A stretch of 64,000 nt of DNA, taken from assembly GCA_043228905.1 (NCBI GenBank), contig JBHGNT010000013.1, positions 16,368,001 to 16,432,000 on the forward strand, written 5' to 3'. Numbering within the stretch: the first letter of the stretch is position 1; every line of letters begins with the position of its first letter. The DNA comes from Azolla caroliniana (lineage: Eukaryota; Plantae; Polypodiophyta). Below the pieces are notes generated by a model that did no database searches, was not told the DNA's origin, and was given only the letters and a program-made list of their open reading frames with translations. The position numbers were made by a program, and so were the translations under genes. This document shows positions 227 through 54,395 of the stretch, piece after piece.

Positions 227-240
227 TCCACCCCCACCAA
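227..240 (-). other. Polypurine tract of Gypsy A
   Basis: TTGGTGGGGGTGGA on minus directly abutting the LTR's TG. Confidence 0.8.
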
Positions 241-399
241 ACCACACATCCTCCGGTATGTGCCAAGAATGGCGGGCTGAGGGTGGTCAATAATTCATTT
301 CCTCCTCCTCATTGACCCTGTGGCTTGTTGTTTGTTCGCCTTTATCTTCGTCAAGGTCATCGAGGTTTGGCTCCCTGTCGTGTCGCTTTTCGAAGATTT

Positions 400-3300
400 T
401 GACCTGTCATGTGGTTATTGGTACTGCTAGCTTAGTCCCATCGAGTTCAGCGAGATGGTAGGGAGCATTATGGTTTGCACTCATTACCACGTACGGCCCG
501 AACCATCGCTTTGCGAATTTCTGCATTGAGCTATGTTGATTGTCGATACTACTATCATATACAATCACCTAGTCTCCTTCTTCGATCTTCTGAGGGCGTA
601 GTCGGTCTGTCTTGTCGAATCGGGCTTTGTTACTTAGCCTAGCCGCTTCTAACCTATCCTTTTCCAACTCCAAGTCTTCGGGTCTTCTCTCAAGTTGCCT
701 TATCCTTGTGGCTAGAAGCTCTTCTCGACTCATCTCGTTTTCCCACGACATCGCTACCCATGAAGCGATCGTGTGTTCAATGGGCATCACCGGCTTTTGT
801 CCGTACATGAGTTCAGCTGGCATGAAACCTGTAACTGAGCTATGAGTTGTTTTGTTGGCCCACAAGGCATAAGGTAGTAACCGAGGCCAATTCCCGACTC
901 GCCCATCACAAGCCCTAACAATGGCTTTTACGATAGGCTCGTGTCCGCATTCTATCTTTCCATTAGCTTCCGAGTTATAAGCGGCCGTGAGAGAGAGCTT
1001 CACTCCAAGTCGGTCAAAGAGCTTTGTAGCTTTGTGAGCGTTCAGCTCTCCTCTGTCGGCCACTATCTTTCTCACACATCCGTACTGGCAGATGATATCC
1101 TCAAGTAAGAATTTACACACCCCTGCCGTCGTTTTGTTTGCTAAGGCTCACCCTTCTACTTGGTTTGTTAGGTCTTCTCTTGCTAGCACCAAATATTTCA
1201 TTTGGCCCACTCCCATCAGCATCGAAACCAAATCCACCATCCATTTGAAGTGTATGATGAGTGGGTAGGTCGGGTGCAACTCGTCCCTATGGCGTACTTC
1301 TCCTTTAACTTCTCAAATGTTGCCCACGTTCCTCTATGGCCCGCCCAAGGACTCTCGTGGAGCTCAGACACCAATGTTGTTTGGTCTTCTTCCTTTATGA
1401 CCACTCGTTGTGGTGTCCCCATCCTTCTCTTCGGGTGCCTCCAGAGGAATCCCCCTCGTAGGAAGTACTTGTACGCTTTCTTTCAGACTCTCTGTGCTTC
1501 CTGCTTCGACCATGAACTATCCACCGTCATTGAGCTTAAGAACTTGCCAATGTGTAGCCACTCCCCTTTGTATTCACTTTCGTTGAAGGCGTGGAGTACT
1601 TGCACATCTTGATCATCTATAGATGCTTGGGCCATCTTAAAGAAGTCAAGAGCGACATCCTCATCTTCAAACACCATGTCGCTTTCGCCCTTGAATCTTG
1701 CCTTGGATAGCATATCTGCCATGGCATTGTTCTTCCCTGAAATGTGGTGAATCTCTGGGTTCATGGATTTGATGTAAGCAATCCACCTTAGCATAGCTAG
1801 GTCAGGTGTTGCACATCCTGAAACCATCCCTAGGATTGGAAGGCAATACGTCTCTATTACCACCTCTGACCCGATTAGGTAATCTTTATCCGCCTTTACT
1901 GCGGACACAATACCCCAAAGCTCATGTTTTACTTGGGCATATCCTCGTTGTCGCTTGCTTAAGACCTTGGCTCCAAACCGGATGGCGTAGCGTGTACCAT
2001 CCTCTCCTTCTTGGTTTATGACCCATCCGATCCCTATTGGACTCGTATCTACCATCACGTAGATGGGCACCCCTTCCTTGTATATGGCTTTTCGTAAAGC
2101 TGGTGCCGCTACCAATATTCCTTTGAACCTCTTCATTGCCTCTGTGTGCTCTTCCTCCCACTTGAACTTCCGCCCCTTCTTAAGTAGCCCATACAAGGGC
2201 TCGGCTAGGTGAGCATAAGGCGGGATCCAGATGTGGTAGAATGCACAGGCACCAAGAAATTGCCTCACCTCTATTTGCGATTTACATTCTTCCTTCATGT
2301 ATGTGATGGCATCCACCTTTGCCGGGGATGACTTCCGTCCGTACGCCCCACACAAGTGTCCCACCACAAGGATCTCCGGTTGGCCGAATGCCGATTTCTC
2401 ACCCGAGAAGGTCAAGTGTGCATCTTCGAGTCTTTGTAGAACCTTCTCGCAATCGGAGATGTGATATGCCACAAAACATCTGCACTCATCTTTGTCCAAG
2501 GTTTCATCTTTCTTCGCTTCAGAGCACCCTTTTATGGGGATGTCATCGAGGAACGACACGGTGATGTCGGGGATGCAATCTCTCAATACCTTGTTCAATG
2601 CATTTACCATGTGGGCTACAGAGTTAGTGCCTCCTTGTGGCAAGGTACACATTCGCACTAGGTCGATAGGCGAATTCATCAACGCTCAGTCCGACCCCTG
2701 CATTTCGAATTGTCACTTGATTAACTGGTTGTAGGTCCTAGATGAAGCGTAAGGTGTCGTTCTTCTTTGGCACAGTGAACCACCGATTCGAGTATGGGGC
2801 GTTTGATGGCTCGAGGATACCCATCTCAATATTTTCCTTGAGTAGTTCAATCAACTTCGGGATGTGAGCTCTCGGAACTGGGATTGGCTTGATGTTCCAC
2901 GGTACATGCGGCACCGTAAAGATCACCATTGGGTCCATGATCTTAGGGTTTACACACCCTATCTCACCTGACGAGAAGGCGAAAGCCCTTTTGTGGCTTT
3001 CGATCATCCTTCTAAATCTTTCCTCCTCCCTGGGAAATAGGAAGCCACCCCCACCAATCCGGAGCTTTTGTCGCGTCTCGTCGGTGAACCGGTGCCTTAT
3101 GCCTCTTGGGTCCCGCAAGGTAGGATCAACCGCTACCCCCTTTATCCGATCCCAACTATTGTTAGGCAATGGGGCAGTCACAGGCTTCACCTTCTTGTCC
3201 ACGGTCTTGTACTTTGTTTGCACCTTGATCATCCTCACTTCCTCAATCAACCGCCCAAGCTCTTCGATGGTGGTGTACATGTCAACTGAGTTGACTGGAA

Positions 3301-4219
3301 TTACATTGTCTTCATTGAGGCCTGAAATGACTACCCTCTCCATCTCTTTGAGAGTGTTGTCGAACGAGACCACCTCCATGGCACCACTTATGGTGTCATC
3401 TTCCCCCAATAAATTACATTGTTTGAGATACCTTTCATATCTCTTGGCCCTAGACTTATCTCTATCACTTAAACTAGTAATTTTACAAGCTCCATTTTCG
3501 GAGAACCAAAATTGTTTCCTATTACATTTAATAGTTTTACAAGGGTTTAGGGTCTTAGTTTGCCTCGGGTTATTTCGGCCCCACTCTTTAATAGCCCGAA
3601 TAAAAAATCCTCTCGGTTCTCCCCTTTGAGGGAGGCTCGATTGCGCTCATGGTTGGGCCTCACCATAAGGAATTGGACCGAATGCTTCCCATCTTGGCTC
3701 TTGACCCTCGCATATGTCGACCCATTGTCTAGCACCTTCGTCTCCATGCGAGCCGTTGTGATGTATGGTTCACCCAAGATGACTCTTGAACAAAGAAATG
3801 TTGTTCTATTTCTATGTCCCCCACCTTCACACGTACATTCGTGCAAGCTCCGTATAACTCCTCGGTTGCTCGGGTTGCCGCTCTAATCTTCCACCCGTGT
3901 TTTGTGTTGATCGGCCACTTTCCATGGACATAAGGTTGATCTCAAAGCCATGGTCGATTAATGCTACAGTTGGCTCTTTTACATCTCCGACCCGTACCGG
4001 TGTCTCCGTTGTTGCTCTCGCCCAATGCGGCCTCGTGTAGTGACTGTCCGCATAGTCTTCGTCTTCCTCGGGAACCTTAGTTGACAATGCATTTACAATC
4101 GCGGGCTTTGCCACTTCTTGCTCCATCGAGAGCCGCTTCCCTCTTCATTAGGTCGATGATGACCTCATGGAATTCTTTCTTGGCAATTCCGAGGACCTCT
4201 CGCAGAGTAAACTCTACGT
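400..4219 (-). pseudogene. Gypsy A pol (protease, RT, RNase H, integrase), broken by stops and frameshifts
   Basis: ALIDHGFEINLM (protease, 3827-4126); WFTVPKKN and LPQGGTNS...FLDDI (RT); VDTSP..IGW and ADMLS (RNase H); LHESPWAGHRG, IVADRGE, EANGKIE (integrase). Confidence 0.92.
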
Positions 4220-4500
4220 TGTCGCGTTGTTATTTCCACATGCATCCGGACAGCTACGACCCGACAGAAGAACTCCAGCCTCAACGCTTCGTCTACGCCA
4301 CGCTCCTCCATTTCCGCGTTGTAGGCTTCCAAGTAAGATGGGACTTTGTCCCCGTTGAAACGGCCGACTCTTTCGACCACTCGCTCAACCGCTTGTTGCG
4401 CTGCTTCTCGCCTCATCACCACTCGTGCCGACTCCAACACCACTTAGGCCACCATCTCCGCAAGTTCATCGTCTTCCGACTCCATCCTCCCTTGCCGCCT

Positions 4501-4518
4501 TTCACGTCACGTTCACCA
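4501..4518 (-). other. Primer-binding site (tRNA-Trp-like) of element B; second copy at 8705-8722
   Basis: TTCACGTCACGTTCACCA versus plant tRNA-Trp 3' end TTCACGTCGGGTTCACCA. Confidence 0.75.
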
Positions 4519-4522
4519 AAGA

Positions 4523-5289
4523 TGTCGCGTTGTTACGCGCGTGCGTGGAGAAAGGCGAGACCACGGGGGTCTTGGACTAGGGAGCGACGGAGCGTAGGAA
4601 GTCGTGCTTCACTGCTTCTGGGGCATCTCAGAAACACACCGGAAGCAACCGAAGGGAGAGAGAGTGAGAGAGAGAGAGCGTGCTTAACACCAACTCACGC
4701 ACACACACGCACACACAGCCCGACCCGACTCACGCCCTTATGTATAGGAAACGCAGGGAAGAAGGGGAGCACCCGACACCAACAAGACGCCAATATACAC
4801 AGACAGACGCAAACGTATATGTATATATATATAAGAAGAATACATTCCCGGCTTCGAGCCGGACTGAGGTAGGTTACAGTAGTCGTCTGCTGCCAAGCCG
4901 CCGTCGGGGAGCTCACGGGCTCGTCGCGCCGAGCGGGGTCTTGCACAGGAGATGAGCTGAAGCAAAACCTAAGCGAACACGAAGGGAAAGAAGAAGAAGC
5001 AGAAGAAACCTAACCCTAAACCTACCGGTATACCCTCTAATGCAAAAATGGGCAACCCCTACACAAAGGGTGTTCCCTTCCTTTTATAGATCAAGGAAAG
5101 GGATGCGTTACAATGTGGAACAAACCCCGACCTACATGGGATCGTCTGTCCCGACTTGACTACTCTTGGGCGCCATAAAGGCGCTCTCGATATTCACACT
5201 AAATGTACGTGGGTGCGTACACACGCTGCACCCCGCCGATGTAGCCAATGTTTCTCGGTTTTCGCCTATGGCCGAAATTCTTCACGACA
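4523..5289 (-). repeat. Shared internal LTR of element B (767 bp)
   Basis: TGTCGCG...CACGACA; PBS on one side, PPT (5290-5304) on the other; TATA-like CTATAAAAGG on minus near 5080. Confidence 0.88.
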
Positions 5290-8011
5290 TCCGCCCCCAC
5301 CTAACTGCACGTCCACCGGTACATGCCAATCTGGTTGAAGGGTGAGAGATTTCGGCTGGTGAGAAACCGGTCTCCCGTGATCCGCATCCCGGCTCGCTGC
5401 CGGTTAGATCTGTCGGCTTCGAGTCTTCCTTCGCGCTCGCCTCCCCGTAGGCTCGTTCGACCCGTCGATGGGTCCTCTGCCGCGATCTCCGTAGTACGCG
5501 TTCTTCCCGCCGTACGCCCGATGTCCTCCGCTTGAGGAATGCCCGTGGCAGCCCGCTTGGCCTCCGTTGTCGAATCATGATGTCCCGATGGTGTTTCGCG
5601 TTGCCTTCGTCCTTCCGCCGCCACCTTCCTTCTCCATGGTCTCACATCGCCGCGTCGGCTCGAACCGCCATGGTCTCCGGAACGGTGTGGAGGATCCTTT
5701 CCGACGTTCTCCGCGCTCGCCTTTCCGCTTTGGCACCTCCGTGTGCCATGTACCCTCGCCCGTTGTTTGGCACTGCCTATGTCGTACTCCGGTTTATTGC
5801 ACGCCTCGTCGGCCCCTTTCCGGCCAGATCGTGCATCGCCGCTCACCCGCATACCAGTGTCCTTTGCATCCGAGGAACACCCCGTAGTAGCCCGCTTGGC
5901 CCTTCCCGTCTCCGTGCTGCTGCAACAGGTCCTGAGTCTTCCGCTTGCCGTCGTCCCCTCGCCCCCACCAGCTTGTCACCCCGGCTTGCCGTGTCAGTCT
6001 TCGTTACTTCGACGGAGCTACCGAGATCTATGAAGCGAGTGTGGAGGATCCTCCTCCGGCCTCTCTTGCCATCCTGATCCCGACCCTATGCAGTCCACTA
6101 GGCACTTGTCACTTCGTTCTCGGCACCTCCCTTGTGCCGTCTTCCGCTTCCTTCGTTCGGCCCCGCCCGCGTCGAACACCGTCCCGTAGTCACGCTTCGA
6201 TCCGGCCCGCGATGGCCACTAGCGAGACTCTTGTTCTGCCCAAGGTGTGCCTTTCCGGCCTGACACACCTCTCCGTGTTTGCCCTTACCGGCTTCTTCCG
6301 AACCTCGTGTCGTCGGGTCCCGTTCCCTGCCGCCACCGTCCTTCTCCCTCGGTCTCACGTTGCCACGTTGGCCGAACTGCCGGAGTCTCCGGATCAGTGT
6401 GAGGGTCCCATAGGACCGGACTCTGTTTCTATGCTTGCCGAAACTCGGGTGTCTTTTGTTTGAGTCCCTCCCGGACTCTCCTCGTGTCTTCCGCGTAGCC
6501 GGGTCCCGTTTCCCGCCGCCACCTTCCTTCTCCCTCGGTCTCACGTTGCCACGATGGCAGCACAGCCGGAGTCTCCGGAACCGGTGTGGGGATCTCGTAA
6601 GACCAGACTTCCTTACGCCCATTGTCTTCGTCACCTCGCCGCCACCGTCAGTATCTTGGTCTTACGTCGACCGCGTTGCCGACTGCCGAAGTCTCTAGAA
6701 CCGGTGTGAAGGATCCTCCGTCGACCGCCCTTCCGTAGCCCTTGCCTTCGTCACCTCGCCGCCACCGTCAGTATCTTGGTCTTACGTCGACCGCGTTGCC
6801 GACTGCCGAAGTCTCGAGAACCAGTGTGAAGGATCCTCCGTAGGCCGCCGATTTGTCTTCCTGACCCTGTCCCGGGTCGTCCTTCTCCGTATACTGAGAG
6901 GGCGTTTTGTTCCGCACCCTCTCCCGTGGTACCGACGTACCGTGTCCTCGGCCTCTTCGTAGGCCAGCTCTCTTCCTCCCTCCTGGAATGGTCATCCGGG
7001 AGTCCGCTCCGCCCGGTTCTCGCTCGGGTTCGTTCGTCTTTCTCCAGATTGCCGAGTCCCGTTCTCCTGTCGCCACCGATCTCTCTTGTCGGACTCACGC
7101 CGGCACTCGGGCCTGCAGCCGGATCGGTGTAAGGAAACCCATAGGACCGGCTTTCATTCTCTTCCCAAATCTCGACCTTCGCCCGGTCGGTCTTTCTCCC
7201 CATGTAAAAGAGGGCGGCTCGTCCCGCACCCTCTCCCGTATTGGCACCTCTATGCCGAATCCGGCCTCGATCGAATGATCCACGACCGGATCACGCTCCA
7301 TCCGTATCGGAATGACAATCTCCTCGTGCCGCTTCCGTCCTTGGCCTCCTCGCAGGCCATTTCCCATCCGACTTCACTGGCATCGTGCCAGGACTCCTCG
7401 GTACCGCCATCCATCTCCTCGGTCTTACATGGCCATACGGGCCCGAATGCCAAGTTCTCCGGAATCGGGTCCGTGGGCTTTCGTCCGTTCCTTCCCCGTA
7501 TCGTCTCGCGGGTGATTCTTGGCCTATCGCTGCTGCCTTCCTCCGCTTGGGACTCGCGTGGGCACTCGGGCCCGACTGCCATCGCCTCGGGAGCAAGTGT
7601 GGGAAGACATAAGGAATCACCCGTCTGTTTTACGCCCTTGTCCGTAGCCACCGGCTCTCCGTGGTTGGCGGTCGTCTTCTTACCGATCGCGCAAGCCCCG
7701 TCTGGGCTTGCTTCTCCAATGACCGGGATCTCGGGCTGACACGCCCGAAACCGCTGGTCCCAACGTTCCGGTTCCGCGATCGATATCTCGGCCTCATCCT
7801 TGGCCGTTCTATCTCCGCAAGTCGAGAGGGCGTTTCGTTCTGCACCCTCTCCCGTGGTACCGACGTACCGATCTTCCGCCGTCGCGTGGGGCAAGTCCGT
7901 CTTCTTAGTCTCGGCTTGCGGCCTCCGTCTTTCCTCTTCCTCAAGCATCGCCTCGAGAGCTGCGTACGCCTCCGCAATCCTAGCCCCAACGCCGATCCTT
8001 GCCGACTCTCT

Positions 8012-8690
8012 TTACCGTTCGGCCTCTTCCCGTTGTGATGGCACGCCGTCGCATACCTTCCTCTTAGCCTTCTCGGCTCGCTCGTTGTCTAGCCGTTGGC
8101 ACACCCTTCCAACCTTCGACCAGTCCTCCGTAAGCCCATTCGCTCCGTCATTGTCTTCGAGCTCAATCCCGATGGCTTCCCGTTCCGCTCGGTCGATCAA
8201 CCTGACGAACAAAAGGACTTTGTCCGCCCCCACCAAACCTTGTTCCCGCTCCGGGAGCCGAGCAAGCCGTCTCTCAAACTCTCGGAACGCCTTGGTCGCG
8301 CCCCGATGGGTTTTTGCCGATGCTACCCACTAGTCAAAGTCGTGCCGTCCCCGGCTCTTCCGCCACCCTCCGTATGCCTTCAGGAGCGCCTCTTCGAAGG
8401 CCTCCCACGAACTATGAGCCTCTCAGAGCTCCTTTATTTCCACATGCATCCGGACAGCTACGACCCGACAGAAGAACTCCAGCCTCAACGCTTCGTCTAC
8501 GCCACGCTCCTCCATTTCCGCATTGTAGGCTTCCAAGTAAGATGGGACTTTGTCCCCGTTGAAACGGCCGACTCTTTCGACCACTCGCTCAACCGCTTGT
8601 TGCGCTGCTTCTCGCCTCATCACCACTCGTGCCGACTCCAACACCACTTAGGCCACCATCTCCGCAAGTTCATCGTCTTCCGACTCCATC
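8012..8690 (-). pseudogene. gag N-terminal remnant of element B
   Basis: VGRFNGDKVPSYLEAYNAEM...KVLLFVRLID...GLTEDWSKV aligns with Gypsy A gag MGRFNGRDITSYLDAYKAKM...KVLLFIKTVD...GLTTDWAMV. Confidence 0.85.
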
Positions 8691-8726
8691 CTCCCTTGCC
8701 GCCTTTCACGTCACGTTCACCAAAGA

Positions 8727-9070
8727 TGTCGCGTTGTTACGCGCGTGCATAGAGAAAGGCAGGACCACAGGGGTCTTGGACTAGGGAGCGACGGAGCGTA
8801 GGAAGTCGTGCTTCACTGCTTCTGGGGCATCTCAGAAACACACCGGAAGCAACCGAAGGGAGAGAGAGTGAGAGAGAGAGAGCGTGCTTAACACCAACTC
8901 ACGCACACACACGCACACACAGCCCGACCCGACTCACGCCCTTATGTATAGGAAACGCAGGGAAGAAGGGGAGCACCCGACACCAACAAGACGCCAATAT
9001 ACACAGACAGACGCAAATGTATATGTATATGTTTCTCGGTTTTCGCCTATGGCCGAAATTCTTCACGACA
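8727..9070 (-). repeat. 5' LTR of element B with an internal deletion of about 420 bp
   Basis: Matches 4523-4826 joined directly to 5249-5289. Confidence 0.88.
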
Positions 9071-10570
9071 ACGCGACAATCAAGGATCCTCTCCTCCACT
9101 ACCTTCTTCAAGTCCGTTGCTTGTTCGATCTTCGAGCAAAGCTTGAAGTTGGGGGGGTTCCCCTTCTCTTTCCATCTTTCGTCGCGTGCTTGAGACAGGT
9201 TCGGCTCTTCCCTTCTTCACGCACCTCGAGTGTCGTATTTCCTTGATGGACCGACTCCCTCGTCATTTTCTACCTTCTTCTCTTCTACCATTACTTCGTA
9301 GTTTTGGCAAGCGGCTTCCACTAAGCCTGTCTTTTCTTCCACCGGATCCTTCCACCCGGTTGCTTCTTGGACCCTTCTTTCCGCTTCATCCGGTTCTTCT
9401 CTTTTGAACTTCCCCTTAGAGAGGCTTCCAAGGATTGATGGACAAAAGTCAAACTCTCCTCTTGCCTCACCTCTTTCCCCACTTGGATCCCAGCCGATAC
9501 CGAGTAGTGGACGGCTTCAACATGTCATGCTTCGGCCTCCTCCATTAGCCTTCTCATGCCCCCTCGGCCTTGATTCAATCCCAAGGGGCGCCTCGTCTCC
9601 GTCTTATAGACCCTATTGTTCCAAAGATAGACAATATCCTTTCTTAGGGCCTCTTGAAAGTCTCCACACTCCCTTCGTAGGTGGTCGGGGTTGTCGCACC
9701 ACATACATCTTTGCGCGAACGGGGGATGCCGATCTTGAGGGCCGCCACTCTCTCTCCTAGCTTGTGCTATTTGGAGATCTCGCACCATCTTTGTCAGCTC
9801 GTCTATTGCCGACCCTCCCGACGGTGCTTCAACCACGTTTCTCTCGGGGACGAACCTTGCATTTGCTTGCTCTCTTTCTTGACGTATTCTACCACCCCTA
9901 GGTTCGTGTGTCTAACTAATGGAGCCTGTGGATGTTTGGCCGTTCAACAAAGACCCATCGTTCCATTCCCTTCTCTTATCAAAGCGGCTACAAACCCGTT
10001 TTACCATAGCCCAATCTGTCGTGAGCCCATCATCAGTTTCGAGGAGGGACCCTAGCTTCTCTCGGTCTCGTGCATCAACAGTCTTTATGAATAGTAGGAC
10101 CTTGCTTGTATCAAGCACCATCTTATTGAGAGCCGAGAGTTGTGCGAAGCACTTCTCAAATTCTTGTAAAAGTACCATAGTATTTCTCCCCTTGCCGGGA
10201 AGCTCAACCCACTCCATTAGATCCTTTTTCGAACTTCTGAGTGAGTCATCAAGGCCGTACTTCTCAAGGAGTCTTTCTTCGAACTCCACCCAATTGCAAC
10301 AGTCCGCTTGGATCTCGAGTACCTCTACGTGGATACTTGGCGTTACCACTCTAGCGAATCCGGTTAGCCTCCTATCTTCGGGGACGTTTCGCATAAGCAT
10401 TTTGGCCTTATAGGCATCCAAGTAGCTCGTGATATCTCTTCCATTGAACCGACCCATTGTGCTGACCACCGTCTCTATGGCTTGGTCTAGGCCGGTGATG
10501 CCTTCTCGGGCATTTCCCAAGCGGTCCACCGCCGCCGCCATCGCTTTAGCAAGTTCTCCTCCTCGCATCT
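9071..10570 (-). pseudogene. Gypsy A gag
   Basis: ORFs 9912-10619 and 9525-9836; zinc knuckle CMWCDNPDHLRREC. Confidence 0.88.
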
Positions 10571-10600
10571 TGGTTCTCCCTTGCCGCCCTTTCACGTCAG

Positions 10601-13114
10601 TTTCAGATCGATAACCCAACCTCGGAGCAACTCATCCGATATTTCGGTGAGTACTCTGTTGCCGGCAAAGGCTATCGGACGCAGGGCGGCGAAGATCCGC
10701 TATTCAGGGAGATAGCTCGAGTGCTCCATGAGTACGGTCACGTGTACCCCCGACCCCCTGTCATGCCAAAAAATCGGGCAGGGATGATCATAGCCACCTA
10801 TGAAGGGATCAAGGTGGACTGGCCGGTGTTGATTGCAGACGGGTTGTGCATGGCAATCGACATGGTACGAGGAAAGGACGGCAAGGAGGGCCGGAAGCTG
10901 TGGCACGCCGTAGCTCAATGGATAACATTGCTCGTGCCGCCGGTCGAGACCGTCCAGCCAAAGAAGCGGCCAAGAGTATCGGAAGGAAGCACCTCGAAGC
11001 CGGCGTCCAAACGACAGCAGCTGCTGGCGTCGAAGGCGACGAAAGGGAAGAAACGGGTCCCAGAACCGGAGGAGGTGTCACCGGTCCGACCCGTCAAGAT
11101 AACCTTACGGAGACCGGGACAGAAGGAACCGGAACCCTTGACGGCACAGACACATGCCGTGACACAGGAAGAGGAAACGGAGGAGCCAGAAGAGCACCTC
11201 CAACGACGGTCAAGAAGTAGGACCGCCGAAACAGGAGGGGAGCGGTCGTACCCGCGAGAGGCAGAAACGCCCCCAACTCAACCTGAGCAAACCACAAGGG
11301 AAGAACCGGAACCGGTGCGTAGGGAACCGGTCTTGTCGACTTCTATAGAAGAAGTCAGTCCAACGGCTCCGGAGACGGCGAGAACCGGAACTCAACAGCC
11401 GGCGAGCCCAGCCAGAGCACACGGCGGCCAAGGAGTAGAACCAGAACGACATATGCAGGCACTCAGGCCAGACAATTCCACAGGGAATGAGCCGACCCGA
11501 CCAGTACAGCAACAGGGCACCAGTAGCATGTGGCTACGGTGGGTAGGCGAGCAAATCGCCGGAGCGGTCGAGTATATAGAGGCGGAAGAGAGAGCGCACC
11601 AGGAACGGTTGCTCGTCACAACCGTAGATCTAGAGACGGCCCGGTCCAGAATCCGGAGCCTTGAACAAGACTTGGACAGGGTCACAAGGGAAATGGCTCA
11701 ATTCGCTTTGACAACACAAGTCCAAGCACCGGTGACTCCGGGCAATGTACAGAATAAAGTGTCAAATCAACCTGTACATAGCAATCAGACCCCGGCAACG
11801 GAAACCGTTCCGGAGAGAAATGCAGCACAAGCCCAAGAGCTTGCGGATTTAAAGGATGAGCTAGCTGCCCAAGAAGCGCTGAGGAGCCGCGAAAGAGAAT
11901 TGAAGACGGCAGCGGAGGCAGAACTCAAAAAGACTGCTGAGAATCTACGCCGGGCCGAGGAGAGCTTACGGAAAGGCCACCAAGCGTACGACCGGCTCAA
12001 GGAGGAGAAGGAGAAAATGCTGCAAGAGAAGGAGAGGCTCCGGAGGAACGCCGAAACAGAAGTAGAGCGCCTGAAAGAGGAACTCCGGCAGGTAAAGGAC
12101 CGGGAGGACCGGAACCATCGCCAGATCAACGGCAAGCTCAAACAAAAAACGGAGGAATTTGAGAACTTGCACCGGGAGTATAAACGGTTGCAAACGGAGC
12201 ACAAGGAACGGACGGATGAGCTCCGGCAAGCAGTTGATCGGACCGCAACCGCATTCGCCAAGGAACAAGCGGAAAACAGAAGACGGTTGGAAGAGGCGGA
12301 GAAGGTTCGGACAGAGCTCCTCAGGCAACAGCAGGCGGAAAAAGAAAGAGCGGCGGAGGTACTGCAGAGGCTGCAAACGACATATCAAGGGCAGCTGACG
12401 CGCTACAGAGAGCAGGCGGAGGATACGGCAAATCTCATCAAGCAGTTGAAGGAGGAGCGACAAGTGGTGGAAAGCAGAGCACAAATGGGAGCAAGTCGCA
12501 TCCAGGATATAATGCGGGCCTGGTTGAACCAGACCAAGAGCTTGATTGACAACGGGTCCGTCAAATGGTGGACCAAGTGGGCCACGAACGCGGTGGAACT
12601 CCAATTGCTCCGGGCTGATGTAGAGAACCGGCGGAAGGAGGGAGATGATTGCTATATGCTGACTTCCGAAGACTTCACCGGCATAAGAGATGAGCTTGCC
12701 GAAGACTTTCAAGCCTTGGCAGAGGACCAACTAGAGCAAGTCCGGCAACTTGTAGCTCAGCTGGACGACGACAGGCTGGAGGCGCAGATCTAGTTTGAAA
12801 GCTACGAGAGGTCCCGGATCCGGGGAGAGAAGGAACGAGAACCAGTTACGGTCAACCTCAGTGATGAGGAACCGTTACTGGAAGGAGACCGGACCGGAAG
12901 TAGTCAAACGGAGATGTCGGAGCCAGAGAGACAAACGGAGCAGCCGGAGTCAGCGAAACAAACGGAGCAGCAGCAGCAAGCAGAGCAGCCGGAGCAGCCT
13001 CAGTCCCAACCGCAACCACAGCAGCAGCAGCAAGCACAGCCGCAACAACCACAACCGGAAGAACAAGTGGAAATTCTTGAACAAAGTAATTTGGACAATT
13101 TGGGTGAACAATGA
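10601..13114 (+). CDS. Retroelement accessory ORF: N-terminal plant-transposon-protein-like domain, long coiled coil and Q/E-rich tail; 5'-truncated, one internal TAG at 12791
   Basis: 690-aa ORF 10721-12793; frame is open back to 10601 and continues in frame to 13114; GIKVDWPVLIADGL motif; E/K/R/Q-rich helical region. Confidence 0.7.
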
Positions 13115-13147
13115 AGGGGCCGAGAAGGGTTCGACGTACAAGGTACT

Positions 13148-13164
13148 GTCCCACGGGCGTGCCA
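13148..13164. other. tRNA-Arg 3'-end motif adjacent to the LTR of element D
   Basis: GTCCCACGGGCGTGCCA versus plant tRNA-Arg(UCU) 3' end GTCCCAC(C/T)GGGCGTGCCA, 2 nt from the LTR. Confidence 0.75.
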
Positions 13165-13166
13165 TG

Positions 13167-13586
13167 TGTTACCGGCCGGCAAGGAGTCCAAAATACGGAG
13201 TGAAGGAATTAATTAGATATGGTTGTAAATGAGCATAGTGTGGACGGACGGACTGGAAACGGTATGCCGTTCCAGATCCGGACGGATCCCGAATAGGTGC
13301 GAGAGGCACCGTTTTGTACTACGGGCCGGAAACCTATTTAAAGGCCCGGACCCCATTGTAATGACAGCTGATAATTAGTGGAGCTTATGTTGTTTATACT
13401 TCTGTCTTGATTTCCGTTCTGTAATCACTGTTATATCTTACGCGTGTAATTAACCAAAGCAATCTAATTGTGTAACCTACGTAAGTCGGTGTAATCGTTG
13501 AATCTTAATCCTATGCCGTAATCACCCTTTGGTGAAGTGTCTCCGTGACACCTTGTGTTAGGCCTTGTCCGGCTAAGCGAATAACA
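13167..13586 (+). repeat. LTR of element D (420 bp)
   Basis: Inverted termini TGTTA/TAACA; CCTATTTAAAGG TATA-like box near 13333 followed by a T-rich R/U5-like segment. Confidence 0.75.
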
Positions 13587-13642
13587 CCGCCATCGCTTTA
13601 GCAAGTTCTCCTCCTCGCATCTTGGTTCTCCCTTGCCGCCCT

Positions 13643-13660
13643 TTCACGTCGGGTTCACCA
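13643..13660 (-). other. Primer-binding site of Gypsy A, complementary to tRNA-Trp
   Basis: 18-nt TTCACGTCGGGTTCACCA equals the recalled plant cytosolic tRNA-Trp 3' end; 5 nt from the LTR. Confidence 0.85.
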
Positions 13661-13665
13661 ATTTA

Positions 13666-15191
13666 TGTCGCGAAGTTTCGCGCACGTGTGTTACTTGGGC
13701 GGGACCACGAGGGTCTTGGACTAGGGAGTACTCAAGGGATAGAGAAGACCCGAGGTTTACTTTACAACAATACTACTTCCTGACCCCTTCCCGAGCAAGG
13801 TCTCATTGCCCTTTGTTTTGTGAGGACGGTGGCTCTTGTTGATCACGACTCGTCGACCTTTCGAGCTCACCGCACGAGCCAAGTGATCAAACGGGTACAA
13901 GCAAGATAAGCATGCACGATGAACGCACAAGGGGAAGATAACACAAACATGAATGCCCGTACGTCTTTATGAGGAGGAGAGGTGCATGGGCACGCCTGAA
14001 CGCTCCCTCGTCACAAGACATCGAACGTACGAGGAAGACAAAAAACACATGCACAAATGCTCGTACCCCTTTATGAGGAGAGGTGCATGGGCACGCCCGA
14101 AACGCTCCCTTGTCACAAGATGGCCGAACGTACAAGGAAGACACAAACACACACACAAAATGCTCGTACGCCTTCATGAGGAGGAGAGGTGCATGGGCAA
14201 GCCCGAACGGTCCCTCGTCACGAGACGGCCAAACGTACAAGGAAGACACAAACACATGCACAAAATGCTCGCACGCCCTTATGAGGAGGAGAGGTGCATG
14301 GGCAAGCCCGAAACGGTCCCTCGTCACAAGACAGCTGAACCTACAAGGAAGACACAAACACACGCACAAATGCTCGTAAGTCTTTATGAGGAAGAGAGGT
14401 GCATGGGCACGCCCGAAATGCTCCCTCGTCACAAGACGACCGAATGTACAAGGAATACACAAACACACTCACAAATGCTCGTACGTCTTTATGAGGAGGA
14501 GGGGTGCATGGGCACGCCCGAATGGTCCCTCGTCACAAGACGGCCGAATGTACAAGGAAGACACAAACACACGCACAAAATGCTCGTACGCCTTTATGAG
14601 GAGGAGAAGTGCATGGGCAAGCCCGAAACAGTCCCTCGTCACAAGACAGTCGAACATACAAGGAAGACACAAACACACACACAAATGCTCCTACGTCTTT
14701 ATGAGGAGGAGAGGTGCATGGGCACGCCCGAAGGAAAAATGGCGATAGTCTCCTCCTCCCAAAACGTCCTCCTGAATGAGCCCCCCTCGACCTCCTTTTA
14801 TAGGAAAAAAAGAAGGGGGGTCCGCCAATTTTGTCTTCAATGAAAAAGGAATAAAATTCCTTAAATCACGCTACACTGTAAGACTAGATTTGAACCGTGC
14901 ACCTCTAGCTAGTAGTCAATGTGACTATTCACTAGCCCATTAACTCTCTCGTATATAATATATAATTCTATCTCTATAAATTCTTAGGGCCATGTCTCTT
15001 CTCTACATTTGATCTCTCTTCTCTCTTACTTTTTGCACAGGCTTACATGCATCCTTTCTAGCCTTTCTTTTCCCTTTTATTTTGCATATGCACAATTAAT
15101 CGCTTTTGTGTGCACACACATTGCACATGCACATTTTTGACCCCCCCCTTTCGCCGGGTTTTCCCACTCTCGAGCATGCCACATCACGACA
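13666..15191 (-). repeat. 5' LTR of Gypsy A (1526 bp)
   Basis: TGTCGCG...CACGACA; TATA CTATAAAAGGAGG on minus near 14792-14804. Confidence 0.9.
13940..14731. repeat. Tandem array of about 105-bp units (about 7.5 copies) inside the LTR
   Basis: ATGAGGAGGAGAGGTGCATGGGCA recurs at roughly 105-bp intervals. Confidence 0.92.
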
Positions 15192-16317
15192 CCGTATTTG
15201 TCGTGTTCGCTTTTTCTACCCATGCTTGGGCCGTCTGACGTATCTCATCTTGCACGGCCCAATCAGCATTTTTTGTTTACTGTCGTGTCGTGACTTGTTG
15301 GACTGCCGCCATAATCGTATTGACGGCAGGCCCTTTGCCTTTGCGTAGTAGACATTGTGTGGCATAATGTCCTAGCTGTTGGCAAACAAAACAATGGACG
15401 CTAGATTCGCCTTTCTCGGCAACTGGTGGTGCATGCCGATCCCCGGTGTGACTTGCTCCTCCCAGTCCTGATTCATTCTTCTGAGTGTACGCGGTAGTTG
15501 TTGTTGGTCCCGGCACGGTTCCTGGTGTCGGTCATCGCCCGAACTTTCATCGTACCGCCGTTGGTGCCGATACTGACAATGTTTCCCGCGAGGCCCATTG
15601 AAGCCGCCCCGTTTGTTCGTCGGACGGCAATTCTCGTAGCGTCAGCCTCTATTATATTTGTGGTTGGCATAGTAGTCTTCATCCTCCGGCTCTTCTTCTT
15701 TGGAATCATTGTTATTTCGGCGATTCTGGTAGTGCCGGTCATCGCGTGGGTTCCGATCCGTATACCAGGGTCGTTCTTCCTGGTGCTTTTGCTCATTACG
15801 GCGAGGGGGGCACTGTGTTTCCACGCTTCGTACTGTGGGCGTGGATCTGTTCAACATATTGTACTCACACTGCTCGATTGTGTGAGCTTTCGAGTGACAG
15901 ATTGGGCAGTGGATTCGCATGTAGCATAAAACTGCGGAATGCCTAGAATTTAAGCAAATCGTGCACTGGATTGCCTGGCGAAAATGTCGTTCCTCATCCT
16001 AAAGTAACGTTTGCCGTAATGAGGACATGGAAAATGTTTCCTCTTCTTCGTCCAGCTCGAGTTAGCGCTCGTTCTATGACCATATCGGCCGTAACTTCTC
16101 CTTTCACGCTATTGTTGTTGAGTATCATCCGTATCGGTCGTCGTAAAGCTGCCATAAATGTCTCCCGAGCCTCGTCCTCCGTCGGGCCTCATTCTAATTT
16201 CCGTTGTAGGTTTTGGAAGCGTAAATTGAAATCCGCTACAGTCTCAGCCGGCAATTGTTTAATTGTATAAAATTGCCCGAGGATTTTGCATTGCGGCACC
16301 CTCGATGAAAGAAACGT

Positions 16318-19990: not shown

Positions 19991-20464
19991 AATAACATTA
20001 GTTTTAAATGAAGGAAATCAACAATTGACTATTGTAATGCCTCAATTGGAACCACATCTAATTGCTTTATTCTAGATTGTTCATGCACATGCTCGAACTA
20101 GCAATGTTGGATAAGCGGTTTTCAAGAAAAACTTTGCGTTTGAATGGTTTTTGTTGAGATACAAGCTCAACATTGGCTGGATCGGCTGTGCAAACCGAGA
20201 ACCGGACCGGTGTCACCCGATGCGTAAACCGATACGCAAACCGGTGCGTAATGAGAAGCCGTAGCGGTGCGTAAACCACGAGGCCGTTGGAAAGATATTC
20301 CACATAGGAATATATTTTGGGAGTTAGTGTAGAGCTCAGTTATAAGCATTGAAGTACGTGTTTGTACTTCTGTCAGTCCGTATGGACTTGTATAAAAGTG
20401 CTCACTGAGCACATCCTATGTATAGACTGAGTATTATTTTTTGAAATAGAGTTGTGTGTATTGA

Positions 20465-20533
<69 letters not shown>

Positions 20534-20708
20534 GCGTACAGTGTGTGTCCAAGCTCTCCATTAAACTTGTGTTTTCCTACGTTCTGTTTTTTGTTGCTTC
20601 CGCACATTGTTCTTTTCACATGGTATCAGAGCACGAGGGTCGAGAACCTTTGCAGCCGACCTTAGCTCGAGAAGAAAACCTAACCTTCGTAAAGAACACG
20701 AAAAACAA

Positions 20709-23700
20709 AATGGATAGAGGCATGGCTAGCTCGCTTTCAACCGAGAAGCTTGACAAAAACAATTACGCATCTTGGTCCTACAAGATGCACTAGTACCTAC
20801 TCGGGCATGGATACTGGAGCTATGTCGACGAAGCAAATGACACAACACCCGATTCGACACACAAAGACTTCCTGGCTTGGGAACAGTCCGCGAGCAAAGT
20901 TCTCTAGTGCTTCGCGTCTTGTGTGGGCGAACAGCTTCTAAGCTATATTCGGGATGCGAAAACGCCAAAGGATTCTTGGGGAAATCTGAAAAAGATTTTG
21001 ACCGCAAGCACCACAGCCAGAAAACTCCAACTCCAACAAGCGACAACGCGATTTGTTGATGGTTGATTACACCTCGAAGATCAAAGATATATGCGAATCC
21101 TTAGCCTCCATCGATGTGAACGTCGAGGAAGGCGAGATGGTGCAGATCTGTCTCGGGGAACTGGTGTCAAAGTTCGGAGCGTTCCGAACTGTTGTGTGCA
21201 CAAGGGAGAATACGTCGTCGTTTTTCGACCTACAGTCGATGCTCCTTAAAGAGCAGAACCACGCGAGTGCGTCGATGAGTACACACGCTGATAGCAAGAT
21301 GTTTTACACGGAGGGAGATAGGCCCCGTGGTCGTGGCAGACGAGGCGAGTCGGTGCGCAATGGAGGTGGCCGACGAGACCAAGGAAGAAGGCACCGGAGT
21401 GATGCCGACAGCAATTTCGAACCCTCCGGAAACAGGGGGTCTAGGTGACGAGAACCAACAAGGGAAATCCGTCACGGAATGCTAGTATTGTGGCAAGAAA
21501 GGCCACAAGGAGAGCGAGTGCTAGAAGAAGCGTGCTGATTCGGAGAAAACCGGATCCGGATCCGTACAAACCGACAAAGGAAATCGGCAACGATCGCACT
21601 ACACTATCGCGCCTTTCAGCTCCGGATCGTTGCGTGAGTCATGTGGGAACCACTGAGGTTTTGGACTAGGAGAAAGAAGAATACAATATAAGGCTAGTTA
21701 TGAATAGGTAGAAAGAGAAGTAAGAAATAAAACTTGTGAATCCCGTGTGTTTAGTGTATTTAATCAATATTTAGATTGTAAGAAAGAGAATTTTGATGAT
21801 AAACTCATGAATCCCACGAATATATTAGATTGATCAATCCTTGTAAAATAATCAACAACATCATACATCTTTCTCTCCTCCTTATATAAGGATGGAAGAG
21901 GCTAAGCATAGCTTCATGCTTTTTCTAAAGTGTTCATGCACACTAAATGTGCATGAGTTGCTTTTTACACTATGCTTTTATTTCCTAAATATAATGCTCA
22001 TGCTCGCTAGATGTGCACGAGTAATTTTTTATAGGTGTACATTTTTCTTATAAATAAAGTATTTATGCATTCTAAAAATGCATAACTTACCTTTTAATAA
22101 AAGTAGGTGTAAATAAAGGTCTTATACGTATTAAATCTATATTTAGAACACTAAGGATAAGTTAGTACAATGGTAAGGTTGGGATTTGCCTACGTGGAGG
22201 TATAGGGTTTGAATCCTACCCTATGCATGTGACAATCTTTTCTTCTATTTATAAATTTGTCTCTTCATCCGGTGAGAGACTCTCACCGGCCTTCTTTATC
22301 TGGCTCTTGCCGGTTCTTACCGGGTCCTCCTTACCAGTTTCTCCTTCATTCGGTTCTCACCAGTTCTCCTTACCGGTTCCTCCTTGTCCCATCCGGAGAA
22401 ACCAAAATGCAATGTTCACGTAGTGTGCGAATTACACTACGACAACGCCGAAGGATCCGAAAAAATTGGAAAGGGGGCAGCCTTCGTGACAAGACACAAG
22501 GCGAACTCGATGAAGAAGACCACCCCGAAATCAGACGAGGTGTGGTACGTTGACTCCGGCGAGTCAAACCACATGACGAGCCATAAGGAGTGGTTCTCAT
22601 ACCTTGAGAAACCGATGGAACCAGGAGTAGTCGCAACAAGAGACGACACTCCGCATCCGATCAAGAATGTCGGTGAAGTTCCCCTGAGCCATGTCGGGCA
22701 AAAACGGAAACTCATGAACGTGTTACACGTCCCGACAATCACGAAGAATCTAGTGTCGATCGGGCAGATCGTCGACCAGGGGATACAACTCCGGTTCACG
22801 CATCTCGGGTGCTTCATCGAGGAGGAAGGCCAAGTTATTATGCAAGGGCGTAGAGACGGAAGGATGTTTATCCTCGACACCAATGACGTTGGCACCGCAA
22901 TGTTCGCAAAAGGACAAAAAGTCGAGTCAGATATCGACTTGTGGCACAAGCGGATAGGCCACATCAACTATCAAAGGCTTCAGGACTTGCAATCAAAACA
23001 TGTTGTGTTCGGATTGCCCAAATTCAGTGGCCGGAAGGCCCAAATTTGTGAAGCTTGCCAGCTAGGGAAGCAACACCGACTTCCTTTCCCAAACGAGCAT
23101 CATCGGAGCCGGAACAAGCTCGACTTGATACATTCGGATGTATGGGGGCCGGCACAGAACGTTAGTCTTGGTGGGAGTCGATATTTTGTCTCCTTCATCG
23201 ACGACTACACGCGGCACACGTGGATCTATCTCATTGAAAAGAAGAGTGAAGTCTTCGAATGATTTTGGGACCTCAAAAGCTTCATAGAAAGGGAAACAGG
23301 GAGAAAGATCAAGTGCATGCGGTCGGATGGCGGAAAAGAGTACTTTTCTGACCAATTCAACAATTATCTGCAACAAATGGGAATTCGGCGTGAATTCAGT
23401 TGCAGGTATACGCCGGAGCAAAACGGCGTAGCCAAAAGGAAAAATCGGTCAGTTGTGGAAGCAGTGCGGGCAATGCTGGAAGAAAAGAGCTTGCCCAAGT
23501 TCTATTGGGCCTAAGCGGTGTAAACCGTGGTCTACATCCAGAATCGGATTGGAGACAAAGTGTCGGTGCATGAGCTGTATTTCGGAAGGAAGCCGAATCT
23601 ACGATACTTGAGAGTTTTTGGTAGCATTGCATATGTGCATGTGTCGAAGGAGAAATGGAGGAAGTTGGACGCAAAAGCCGAGAAGTGTATCTTGGTCGGC

Positions 23701-26326
23701 TATTCGAATGAACAAAAGGGTTATAAGTGTTATAACCCCCGAACCAAACAAGCTCGCGTGAGCCGCGATGTTGTGTTTGACGAGTCCACGTCTTGGTACT
23801 TACCTCCGACTCCGGACCTCACCTCCAACTCCGGACCCGAGTTCTGAGGATGAGGTTAGCGAGGTTGAAATGCCTCCGGATGACTGCAAAATCAAGACCC
23901 TCGATGAGAGTCTGATTTCATTTCAGCTAAGTGGAACGAACGAGCGACTGGGTTGGTTTGACCATTCCAAAGAAGAGCCAACGAGTAGTGGAGACTCGGT
24001 CGTGCATTCCCCACGCAGGAAGCTGAGGAGACTGCTTACGCGCAAGGAAAAAGGGAAGAAGAAGATGCCGGAGTACGGCACGGATAAGAGCGAGTCGGAT
24101 CGACGCGAATCCGACTCCGAGAAAAGCGATGACGGGCCTTCGAGAGCGAAGTCCGCGTCGGCCAAGAAAGCCTCAACGTCGGCTAATGAGAAATTACGCC
24201 GATCTACCCGTCATAAGAACCCTGTTGTGCGGTTCGGATACAACGAGTACATGGCACATCATTATGCGTACGTGACGCATGTAGCGGAAGTGCGGGAGCC
24301 GAAGAGCTACGCAGAAGCGGCGAAGGATGCAAATTGGCATGCCGCAATGGAGGAAGAGATGCGCGCATTAGTGGAGAATGAAACCTGGGACCTAGTTGAC
24401 ACGCCGAAGGGTGTGAAGCCGATTGGATGTAGGCGGGTGTACAAGGTCAAGTACAACACCGACAGCTCGGTCAACCGATACAAGGTCCGGTTGATAGCGA
24501 AAGGCTACGTGCAGAAGCACGGTGTGGACTACGACGAGACCTTCACGCTTGTCGCGAAGATGACTACGGTGCGTGTTCTGCTAGTCGTAGTTGCGGCGAA
24601 GGGGTGGCATTTACATCAGATGGATGTCAAGAATGTGTTCCTGCAAGGCGAGCTTGAGGAACAGGTGTACATGGTACAGCCCCCCGGATTTCACTCCGGA
24701 ATGAACACTTCGTCGGTCTACTGGTTGAAGAAGTCCCTTTACGGACTAAAGCAAGCCATGCATGCTTGGAACGCGAAAATCACGCAGCGTTTGCGTCAGA
24801 TGGGATTTGCGACGTCCAAATCAGACTCTTCACTGTTCATTCGGCAAGGTCCACTCGGGCTGATTAGTATTTTACTTTATGTTGATGCCTTGGTCATCAC
24901 CGGCGCCGACCTTGGTGAAATTGAAAACGTAAAGGTCCAGCTCGCAGCATCATTTGACATGAAGGACATGGGGGACCTTCATTACTTCCTCGGGATTGAA
25001 GTGATCAGTACCCCCGAAGGCATACTGATCAGCCAACAGCATTACGTGCTGGGTATGCTCTTCAAGTTCAGGATGGCAGATTGTAAGTCCGTCTCGACTC
25101 CTCTGGATAGAACCGTCAAGTTTGCGACCCGAAGAGGTTTCGACAGATTGTCGGAAGCCTCATATACTTGACTATCACTCGACCAGACCTCAGTTACCCG
25201 GTCGGCATGATTAGTCAGTTCATGGCGCAACCAACGGAGGAGCACCTTCAGTGCGCACAACGCGTACTCCGGTACGTAAATGGCACTAAGGACCGGGGGC
25301 TACTATATCAGATCGATACTGCCTCATAGTTAGTCAGTTACACCGATGCTGATTGGGCCGGAAACGCCGGCGATCGTCGATCCACATCCAGATTCACGTT
25401 CTCTCTTGGGAGCGTCGCGATCACGTGGAGTATCAAGAAGCAGCACCAAAGTCGAGTATAGAGGAGCGGTAGTTGCCACATGCGAAGCCATCTGGCTGAA
25501 ATGGCTACTTAAGGATCTGCAAGTGGAGGTGTCCGATCCGACGACGATCTACTGCAACAACCTCAACAGCATCCAGCTAGCGAAGAACCCTATCTTCCAT
25601 GCCCAGACTAAGCACATTGAGGTGCACTACCACTTTGTCCGCGAGTGTGTCCTCTTCGGTGAAGTCGAACTTCAGTATGTTCTAACGGATTGGCAGACCG
25701 CCAACATTTTCACCAAGCCCCTTGGTCTCGACAAGTCGCGGAAATTCTTGGGTGTGCTCGGGTTGCGACACCTCGATGTGCCGAACTTGAGGGGGAGAGA
25801 AGTCCTGGATGACCACGGAAGGGAGCAGGAAAGGAGCGGAAGAGACCGTGACACCAAATCGAATGACGATTTCGATTTCGGGTCGACTGAAGAAGCCGAG
25901 GGCGGATCCGCAAAAGAGTTTGAAAGCGGATGTGAGGGCAGTAGCCAAAAGAAAGAGCCGAAGCCAGCCAAGCATGGGGGAGATAAAGCCACCAAGGGCG
26001 AGAAGACTAAAGACGAGTTGGAGATAGCCAACTCGGATGAGAGCGAAAACCGATCAGAGGAAGCTGATTCGGTTCAAATGTTTGATTCGGAGATGCCGAA
26101 TCAACCGAGGGCCAAGCGGAAGAAAGGGCAGCCAAAGAGCCGCCAACACCGCGACAGCAAGGGAGCTGAGAAGGGCCGCAAGGGCACACACGTTGACCAA
26201 AAGGATCGAGGCGCACGGAATCGAATAGGACAAGGAGCGCGAGCTAGGCGTGAAGCTAGAAGAAACTGGAGTGGTGATTCGGAAGAACCAGAAGAGCCTC
26301 AAGTTAAGCTTGAGGGGGACTGTTGA
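20709..26326 (+). pseudogene. Copia 1 gag-pol with stops and frameshifts and a C-terminal extension
   Basis: WYVDSGESNHM, LWHKRIGH, LIHSDVWGP, SDGGKEY, QMDVKNVFL, LLYVDALVI, TKHIEVHYHFVRE. Confidence 0.93.
21605..22444 (-). mobile_element. Solo LTR (TGTCG-type Gypsy group) inserted in Copia 1 between gag and protease
   Basis: TATCGCG...CTACGACA; flanks ACAC/ACGC; the empty site in related Copia 2 reads CGCACTACGC (about 53318-53327, minus). Confidence 0.9.
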
Positions 26327-47307: not shown

Positions 47308-48806
47308 TTGGCTTCATCATCATGTGAAATGGTGTGGGTTTGCTCAATTTCTACATTTTGTTAGCATATTTCCCTTATGAAAGGCAATGCCACGGTTTTC
47401 TAGCATTTCCCATTGAAACACAATGATTTAGTGTGGATGGTTTGAAACTTGAATTATATATAAAGTATCATGTATAAATGAACACAACATCACACCACAT
47501 CACTTTAGACTCTTGGAACTCCCAACTTAATGTCCATACATCTGTTAAGATTTAGAGTTTCTATAATGAGAAGCCTGAATATGTAATAAGTAACAATTTG
47601 TGCAAACATTTTTACAATGTCCATTGTCTTCCATGAGAATGCTTGCACATTATGTTTTGGCATCTTGCCTCAAGGTGTTATTGCCCATTTTCTGGTTTTA
47701 ACCAAATCTAAGCTCCACATGCCAAATTTGCCATTGCGTTCACTATGGATATGACAACATACATAGCATACATATATAATATATATATATAGCTTCACTA
47801 TCGATATGCCATTGTGTTCAATATATAGCATACATACATATGTAGATGCGTCTAGACTCTATACATACATGCATATATACATACTAGCCCTTCCTTGTAT
47901 ACCTTACGGCCTTTATATTTGGCTGATTGTGGTGCCATACCGCAACTTCAATACCTAGGTTATGGGAAGGATTATTAGGGCTCGACGAGAGTTAATACTA
48001 ATTCTCATAACCAGATACTATCAAATACAGTCAATAGGTATTTTTGTCTTATACAGAGCCCAACATTCAGCATTGATGTTTGCAAGGTCATATGCTAATT
48101 TTGTCCTTCTTTAGCACCTTTCCACTTCTTCTTTAAGTTGAAAATAACTCTAATTTCAAATAAAAACTAATTAGTTTGGTAGCATTATCTAAAAATAGGA
48201 GTGACAATTACAACTCCAAAAGTCACATTTCAAATGTATTTAAATCACTATAGTATCACATATTTTTTTGTGACTTCATCTAAGAATATATATACAAGTT
48301 TATGTGTTAATTCAAATATCTAGTTTGTTATATCTTACCTCTTCATCTCCGTCCCTCAAAGTTATAATCCTTACATGGTATCAGAGTAGAGTTTTGATAA
48401 AAAACCTAAGCGCTATCCTCTTGAGCCATATACCTCTAAACTGCTAGTCATAATCCCTGCACACTCAAAGTTATCCGCAGACAGTATGACTACATCTAGC
48501 AGGAAATACGTCTTAGATAAGTTAATGGAGAAAATTTTCAAAAATTGGAAGTCGAAAATAGAATTGGTACTAGATATTGAAGGGATTCTTGAGGTTGTGG
48601 ATGGCACCTGGGAAGAACCAATAGATAAAACATCAAAAGAATGGAAAACATGGAAGGCTCGAGATAAAATAGCACACTTGGAAATTCTACTACACGTAGA
48701 TGACAAGCAAGCAGACATTATCTCAAGACTCATCACAACTACCGCAATGTGGGCAAAACTAAAAGAGCTATACAAGCCACATGATGGTACAACTAAGCGA
48801 CATACA

Positions 48807-48845
48807 TGTAAACGTAAGTGTTTGCGGAAGCGTAAAACAGAGAAC

Positions 48846-48876
<31 letters not shown>

Positions 48877-54351: not shown

Positions 54352-54395
<44 letters not shown>

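Follow-up and report, generated by a model that had tools for sequence, protein, structure and literature searches.

What primes the plus strand of an LTR retrotransposon in which a sense copy of a tRNA 3' end stands where a polypurine tract (PPT) would be expected? Initiation from a PPT is regarded as a step that retroviruses and LTR retrotransposons share. The question is raised by a truncated element in a 64,000-nucleotide stretch of the Azolla caroliniana genome (the whole stretch analysed, hereafter the window; contig JBHGNT010000013.1), in which a reading made from the sequence alone had noticed that a 17-mer and TG directly precede the LTR at 13167-13586, with no purine tract abutting it. 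We confirmed this arrangement at 13148-13166 and added two parts upstream of it, a T-loop match (13125-13134) and a hairpin (13136-13146), so that the order read in the window is AAGGGTTCGA, C, GTAC-AAG-GTAC, T, GTCCCACGGGCGTGCCA, TG and the LTR. The features are:

10535..10605, minus strand: 71-bp duplicate of host-element positions 13587-13657, 97% identical, at the junction where the 5' two thirds of the element vanished.
10606..13114, plus strand: 3' portion of the extra ORF located after pol in complete copies; its 5' part is missing and a premature stop lies at 12791-12793.
13125..13134, plus strand: match to the tRNA T-stem/T-loop (AAGGGTTCGA against GTGGGTTCGA in the tRNA), predicted to lengthen the pairing.
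13136..13146, plus strand: 4-bp hairpin GTAC-AAG-GTAC between both tRNA matches, at the equivalent of tRNA position 58/59, with covariation.
13148..13164, plus strand: sense copy of tRNA-Arg(UCU) nt 59-76, one base short, with the CCA end (GTCCCACGGGCGTGCCA).
13165..13166, plus strand: 2-nt spacer TG from CCA to U3, counterpart of the CA after the 5' LTR and predicted to be trimmed by integrase.
13167..13586, plus strand: 3' LTR of 420 bp, TG...CA (TGTTACC...AATAACA), with a TATA-like box near 13335.
13587..13591, plus strand: right-hand target-site copy CCGCC, within the gag start of the host element; the 5-bp length of the target-site duplication (TSD) is known from 8 complete copies.

The orientation of the element had to be settled from its other copies. 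A genome search with window positions 13090-13586 returned 2218 candidates, of which the 40 scored matched at 98-100%. Among the 20 loci shown, the flank after AATAACA differs in each of the 12 that lie in the window orientation, so AATAACA is the outer end of the element. When 20 kb was taken beside nine copies, a second LTR was present in eight, each with a 5-bp TSD, and in all nine the tRNA motif flanked the right LTR on its inner side. Complete copies are ~9.7 kb long and are arranged as 5' LTR, primer-binding site (PBS) for tRNA-Arg(UCG), gag, pol, an extra ORF of about 3 kb, the tRNA site and 3' LTR; in one of them (L022), LTRs at 115-534 and 9358-9777 enclose gag with a zinc knuckle, RT, RNase H, integrase and the long extra ORF, all on the plus strand. 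gag or pol was kept in seven of the nine copies on the strand of the third ORF (gag and pol in sense in five, gag alone in one, pol in sense with part of gag inverted internally in one), and the extra ORF stood alone in two. The left LTR is followed by CAGTTT, a 6-nt spacer, and then TGGCGACCACGAT, a PBS with a 13-nt match to tRNA-Arg(UCG), for which three genes were found; this PBS is intact in six of the eight copies with a 5' LTR, and no minus-strand PPT precedes it.

Because complete copies have gag-pol on the plus strand and a PBS after the left LTR, the window LTR is a 3' LTR, the role that the sequence-only reading had put forward conditionally. Its plus orientation also held up, since one TATTTAA box and six TGTAA words occur on its plus strand and none on its minus strand, and the upstream plus-strand ORF proved to be the 3' part of the extra ORF after pol, on the strand of gag and pol in complete copies. 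The product of this ORF (ORF3) is acidic and coiled-coil-like; it has no Pfam family, and the matches of an Atlas search were all under 0.9, none of them a usable lead. LTR pairs differ at 2-3 positions per 420 bases in the four copies measured, and therefore the window's family was recently active.

The same reading had offered an alternative, in which a minus-strand element has the site as its ordinary Arg PBS and the ORF lies antisense between PBS and gag. Seen on minus-strand DNA, 13148..13164 does read as an inverted primer-binding site, and a minus-strand gag follows the truncation point in the window. That gag, however, is the host element's: nothing of the element remains left of 10606, where the 71-bp duplicate of the host gag start is joined, and because this duplicate fills the break the window layout mimics PBS, antisense ORF and gag. 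Complete copies, in which gag-pol is on the plus strand and the other LTR has a PBS of its own, led us to reject the minus-strand alternative, which is almost certainly wrong.

The 17-mer comprises 17 of the last 18 nucleotides of mature tRNA-Arg(UCU) (nt 59-76 less one base), and the 10-mer upstream matches the T-stem/T-loop. A pattern for the tRNA 3' end had 15 genome matches, namely five intact tRNA-Arg(UCU) genes, none of which encodes CCA, two decayed copies, and eight CCA-bearing copies fused to LTR ends. The purine fraction of the last 15 nt before the LTR is 0.53 in the window and has a mean of 0.57 and a maximum of 0.67 over 113 distinct sites, so no purine tract adjoins the LTR. Four neighbouring elements could be recognised as belonging to other lineages (the host element, a distant Ty3 element and two copia elements), and each has a G-rich or purine-rich PPT; two other direct repeats had no LTR-like flanks.

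The site was found well beyond the window's family. Matches to a relaxed motif pattern number 1322 on the forward and 2487 on the reverse strand (with some double counting among the reverse ones); since a control pattern had 0 and 0, the motif is not due to chance. The window subtype accounts for 1038 sites, with 17 nt rather than 18 in 100 of the 100 copies listed. Sister families, found via the PBS or as bystanders, have the same site before the 3' LTR, with 75-90% pol identity and unrelated LTRs, and some of them have Arg(UCU) at both ends. In a metagenome scan, 119 stretches, all from one accession series, contained the motif, and their LTRs barely match the window LTR (two short matches). 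Where such sites had any protein match, ORF3 or pol lay upstream in sense in 48 of 50 and upstream antisense in none; the other sites were without a match. A search of viral contigs had 0 matches. We compared 113 distinct sites in 40 LTR-start groups (reversed-sequence control, 0 matches): a perfect 4-bp stem occurs in 82, in eight different sequence versions; most spacers measure 2 nt, and the CCA end lies 2-5 nt from U3 in nearly all groups. The tRNA site is thus confirmed as real and lineage-wide.

Pairing predictions bear on what such a site could bind. When a natural 57-nt tRNA piece was co-folded with the minus strand, the tRNA 3' end paired with one bulge, the hairpin looped out and the T-arm paired, at -53.1 kcal/mol for the duplex against -31.1 +/- 4.3 for 500 shuffles (RNA parameters standing in for an RNA:DNA hybrid). 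Two observations count against tRNA priming: the window's family has lost two bases of the T-arm match, and the missing base is kept in all families though a perfect match should bind better. Speculatively, the missing base and the hairpin may make the site pair less well with an Arg(UCU) PBS carried by the same RNA. A G-to-A skew of 22 versus 4 among sites is as wobble pairing would give; decaying copies are also skewed, at ~27 versus 11 by hand count.

The hairpin is where a second explanation enters, namely that the element's own RNA at the site, a CCA-ended tRNA mimic with a hairpin, survives RNase H and primes the plus strand like an unusual PPT. The sense RNA can indeed fold (-16.1 kcal/mol), and the hairpin covaries, with three of four pairs varying on both sides in 25 cells and none of 500 shuffles as extreme (27 distinct, hand-chosen rows of equal length, in which kinship can inflate the signal); the conserved missing base would then need no explanation from tRNA pairing. 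In the T-stem of the supposed mimic, however, 13 cells are broken and no change is compensatory (in 26 of 28 rows the search pattern itself fixed the 3' arm), and the site is not purine-rich. We consider a mimic primer unlikely, also because the letters kept at U3 are the tRNA's in the four events described next and the element's in none found.

In four independent aberrant events, true mature tRNA (with the extra C, up to 57 nt, and CCA) stands at U3 with the family's own spacer. The first (E1; G000:C2:12004217, 12014869 and 12017973, three duplicates) has 57 nt of tRNA, TG and then the U3 of the window family, the tRNA part consisting of 54 nt identical to a gene plus CCA. In the second (E2; C2:12742699), ~50 nt of tRNA lie directly outside a 5' LTR with a PBS after it, and a T replaces A58, which may be a misincorporation at m1A58. 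The third (E3; C3:8094121) has a tRNA piece mixed with the 3' arm of the hairpin, followed by the perfect 18-mer. The fourth (E4; C16:17527333 and 17527821) consists of LTR-LTR junctions reading U5, its spacer, T, the exact 18-mer, AG and U3, in an element that is flanked by the TSD AATAG and whose own 3' site, GGCCCACGTGCGTGCCA, differs from the 18-mer at three places. E4 looks like a two-LTR circle junction that retained the plus-strand primer, and its family also has the mirror junction with the minus-strand primer (L292/L300). The 5' end of one element has three tandem LTRs with two identical tRNA-bearing junctions between them (L089:364-1800).

These events bear on the two primers that the sequence-only reading had proposed in place of a PPT, a second tRNA or a remnant of tRNA-mimic RNA: the aberrant junctions carry tRNA letters that the element lacks, which favours the tRNA and disfavours the mimic, priming itself being what we infer from them. 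Nine long tRNA-CCA fusions comprise five (three events) at U3 and four at the U5 of families with an Arg(UCU) PBS. CCA-bearing tRNA copies at U5 ends, three for Arg(UCG) and five for Arg(UCU) (leaving out fusion L291, whose end is not assignable), mark known minus-strand primers. The element's own 17-mer was retained at U3 in none of nine candidates (all ordinary internal sites) and in neither of two from a motif-LTR-PBS search (one being E1, the other a tandem pair), where the searches could detect an event only if it began precisely at the 17-mer or kept the whole LTR plus PBS. A junction pattern had 32 matches against 16 for its control; the 14 examined gave no new LTR-LTR junction, and two more are E4. 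Further fusion searches yielded no new U3 event: of their four matches, one is a chimera and the other three lie at U5 or PBS positions. In the contigs of 4 of 24 sequencing runs, the matches listed gave neither a start site nor a loose end bearing tRNA.

The four events are not of equal weight. In E1 and E3 the fusion occupies the inner flank of a chimeric element, so that a homology-driven template switch onto the tRNA explains them equally well. Such a switch of the growing minus strand would still set the tRNA 3' end at U3 in primer geometry, without implying routine use. Only E2 and E4 point to a retained primer, and both are in sister families, not in the window's family.

A third explanation builds on this, holding that binding of a tRNA or the PBS by the site has some other function (packaging, dimerisation, strand transfer or pausing), that some other RNA starts the plus strand and that the tRNA-U3 fusions are template-switch accidents. 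E1 and E3 fit template switching. Further, in three inversion chimeras (L064, L071 and L279) a perfect 18-mer connects one family's 3' tRNA site with the U5 of another, the partner being the U5-PBS of a family whose PBS is for Arg(UCU); these are likely mis-jumps at the second strand transfer, which the site would cause, given that all three join it to a U5-PBS. A purine-rich run at 13109-13131 could serve as the other start, but we rejected it as a PPT, since it lies 36 nt from U3 and is absent as a conserved feature in sister families, and no other conserved primer candidate adjoins the LTR. The near-constant distance of the CCA end from U3 is primer geometry, and the site of the window family pairs poorly with its own PBS (-22.3 versus -53.1 kcal/mol with the tRNA piece). 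A role in something other than priming therefore seems improbable to us.

We consider it likely, judging from these sequences and predictions, that tRNA-Arg(UCU) of the host anneals to minus-strand DNA and serves there as the plus-strand primer. In the proposed course, tRNA-Arg(UCG) would prime minus-strand DNA as usual and RNase H would clear the RNA from the tRNA site. The last 18 nt of tRNA-Arg(UCU) would then pair with the site DNA, with one tRNA base bulged, while a DNA hairpin would loop out near tRNA position 58 and the T-arm would pair beyond it. RT would extend the CCA end through the 2-nt spacer into U3, after which RNase H would remove the tRNA and integrase would trim 2 nt; where tRNA removal failed, the tRNA would be copied and appear beside U3. 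In its wider form, the proposal is that the PPT has probably been lost throughout a recently active clade of Ty3/gypsy elements in plants, with host tRNAs priming both strands, the second tRNA docking on minus-strand DNA via a three-way junction around m1A58 and faulty insertions recording the primer.

The lineage is Ty3/gypsy and built like Athila. The domain order gag-PR-RT-RH-INT between direct LTRs with a TSD is that of Ty3/gypsy (protease motif and the four acidic catalytic residues of RNase H recognised by eye). The 13-nt PBS match is the usual Ty3/gypsy feature, and the PPT is lacking. No Pfam chromo match, the mark of chromoviruses, was found at E up to 0.1, and no additional archaeal RNase H (aRH) as in Tat elements (Ogre, Retand, TatI-III), one complete copy having a single RNase H. 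The forward extra ORF in the 3' part, the lack of aRH and the 5-bp TSD are Athila-type features. Among named proteins, those of the liverworts Marchantia and Riccia are nearest (42-47%), with most angiosperm relatives at ~40% in pol. In a quick RT tree built without REXdb references, the site-bearing families form a 99% clade apart from an angiosperm group, which we take to be Athila; 3' ends were seen for some rows only, and the tree leaves deeper forks open.

PMC6317226 (Neumann et al. 2019) places Athila in the non-chromovirus OTA superclade and, in the parts available, treats the PPT as a usual feature and not as a basis of classification. Like Athila there, the Azolla elements have no chromodomain, no extra archaeal RNase H, a forward extra ORF after pol, a 5-bp TSD and a non-Met tRNA PBS a few nt from the LTR; unlike Athila, they have an Arg PBS, no PPT and no Athila ORF-1 match, and form a separate clade with ~40% pol identity to angiosperm relatives. 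Phygy and Selgy, as described in the same source, are likewise Ty3/gypsy of non-seed-plant type without the extra RNase H, but they are short, with a polyprotein filling the interior and no extra ORF, whereas the elements here span 9.7 kb and have a long extra ORF; Phygy also prefers an NCGN target, in contrast to the varied 5-bp TSDs here.

Canonical reverse transcription of LTR retrotransposons and retroviruses, with a tRNA at the PBS and an RNase H-resistant PPT (PMC13191261, PMC10886601, PMC3185511), shares with these elements the TG...CA LTRs, the PBS after the 5' LTR, RT, RNase H, integrase and the 5-bp TSD, and differs from them at the PPT position, where they have the sense tRNA copy with its hairpin. 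An RT that copies a tRNA usually halts at m1A58, 18 nt in, and sometimes passes this base (PMC13191261). The closest parallel for the aberrant junctions is integrase-independent insertion of Tf1 in fission yeast, whose cDNA ends carry copies of both primers that guide aberrant insertions and are visible in these and in tandems; the extension on the U3 side is the PPT in Tf1 and tRNA here (PMC11042837). A primer tRNA retained and copied between the LTRs at a circle junction is also known from MMLV (Colicelli and Goff, as described in PMC12220202), there as the minus-strand primer at U5, whereas here the CCA end faces U3. Helenus TRIMs are LTR elements with tRNA-derived sequence too, but their tRNA-like part lies inside the LTR as a promoter, and PBS and PPT are kept (PMC10886601). 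No description of a tRNA-primed plus strand was found in a literature search that reached few subscription journals or Repbase notes (such elements may be listed in the PMC6317226 supplements), and the available part of the ATHILAfinder preprint (10.64898/2026.03.20.713144) gives no motifs.

If the proposal is true, a successful lineage, with thousands of sites in one genome, shows that the PPT step can be replaced by a tRNA. This would call for an RT able to extend a tRNA paired with DNA and for an RNase H able to remove both tRNA primers. The proposal would bear on the origin of PPT priming and on the control of elements by tRNA fragments, which would have a second site to act on. Annotation tools that score PPTs, or that would orient such elements backwards, would be affected.

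Several other arrangements were seen along the way. Head-to-head LTRs are joined via a read-through copy of tRNA-Arg(UCG) at L053:1500 and L056:91. A chimeric element at G000:C3:8087109-8094714 (L305) was apparently inserted in a tRNA gene, presumably for tRNA-Phe, with a 13-bp duplication. In the window, the host Ty3 element (~230-15200, minus strand) has gag at 9912-10631, RT and RNase H at 1486-2685, a G-rich PPT, a PBS near 13640-13657 that we take to be for tRNA-Trp, and 105-bp tandem repeats inside its LTR (13940-14750). Nested in it are 597-bp direct repeats (4230-4826 and 8434-9030), 98.8% identical and with no clear TG...CA ends, PBS or PPT; the ORFs tested between them had no Pfam match. 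Two related copia elements, at 20218-26705 on the plus strand and 48805-54733 on the minus strand, have (GA)n runs in their LTRs, the PBS TGGTATCAGAGC and normal PPTs. Finally, a short non-coding family (L091:747-3450, L038 and L054), with an internal region of ~2.5 kb and TTAGGG-like repeats in its LTRs, has the same Arg(UCG) PBS and 3' tRNA site and is likely a non-autonomous partner.
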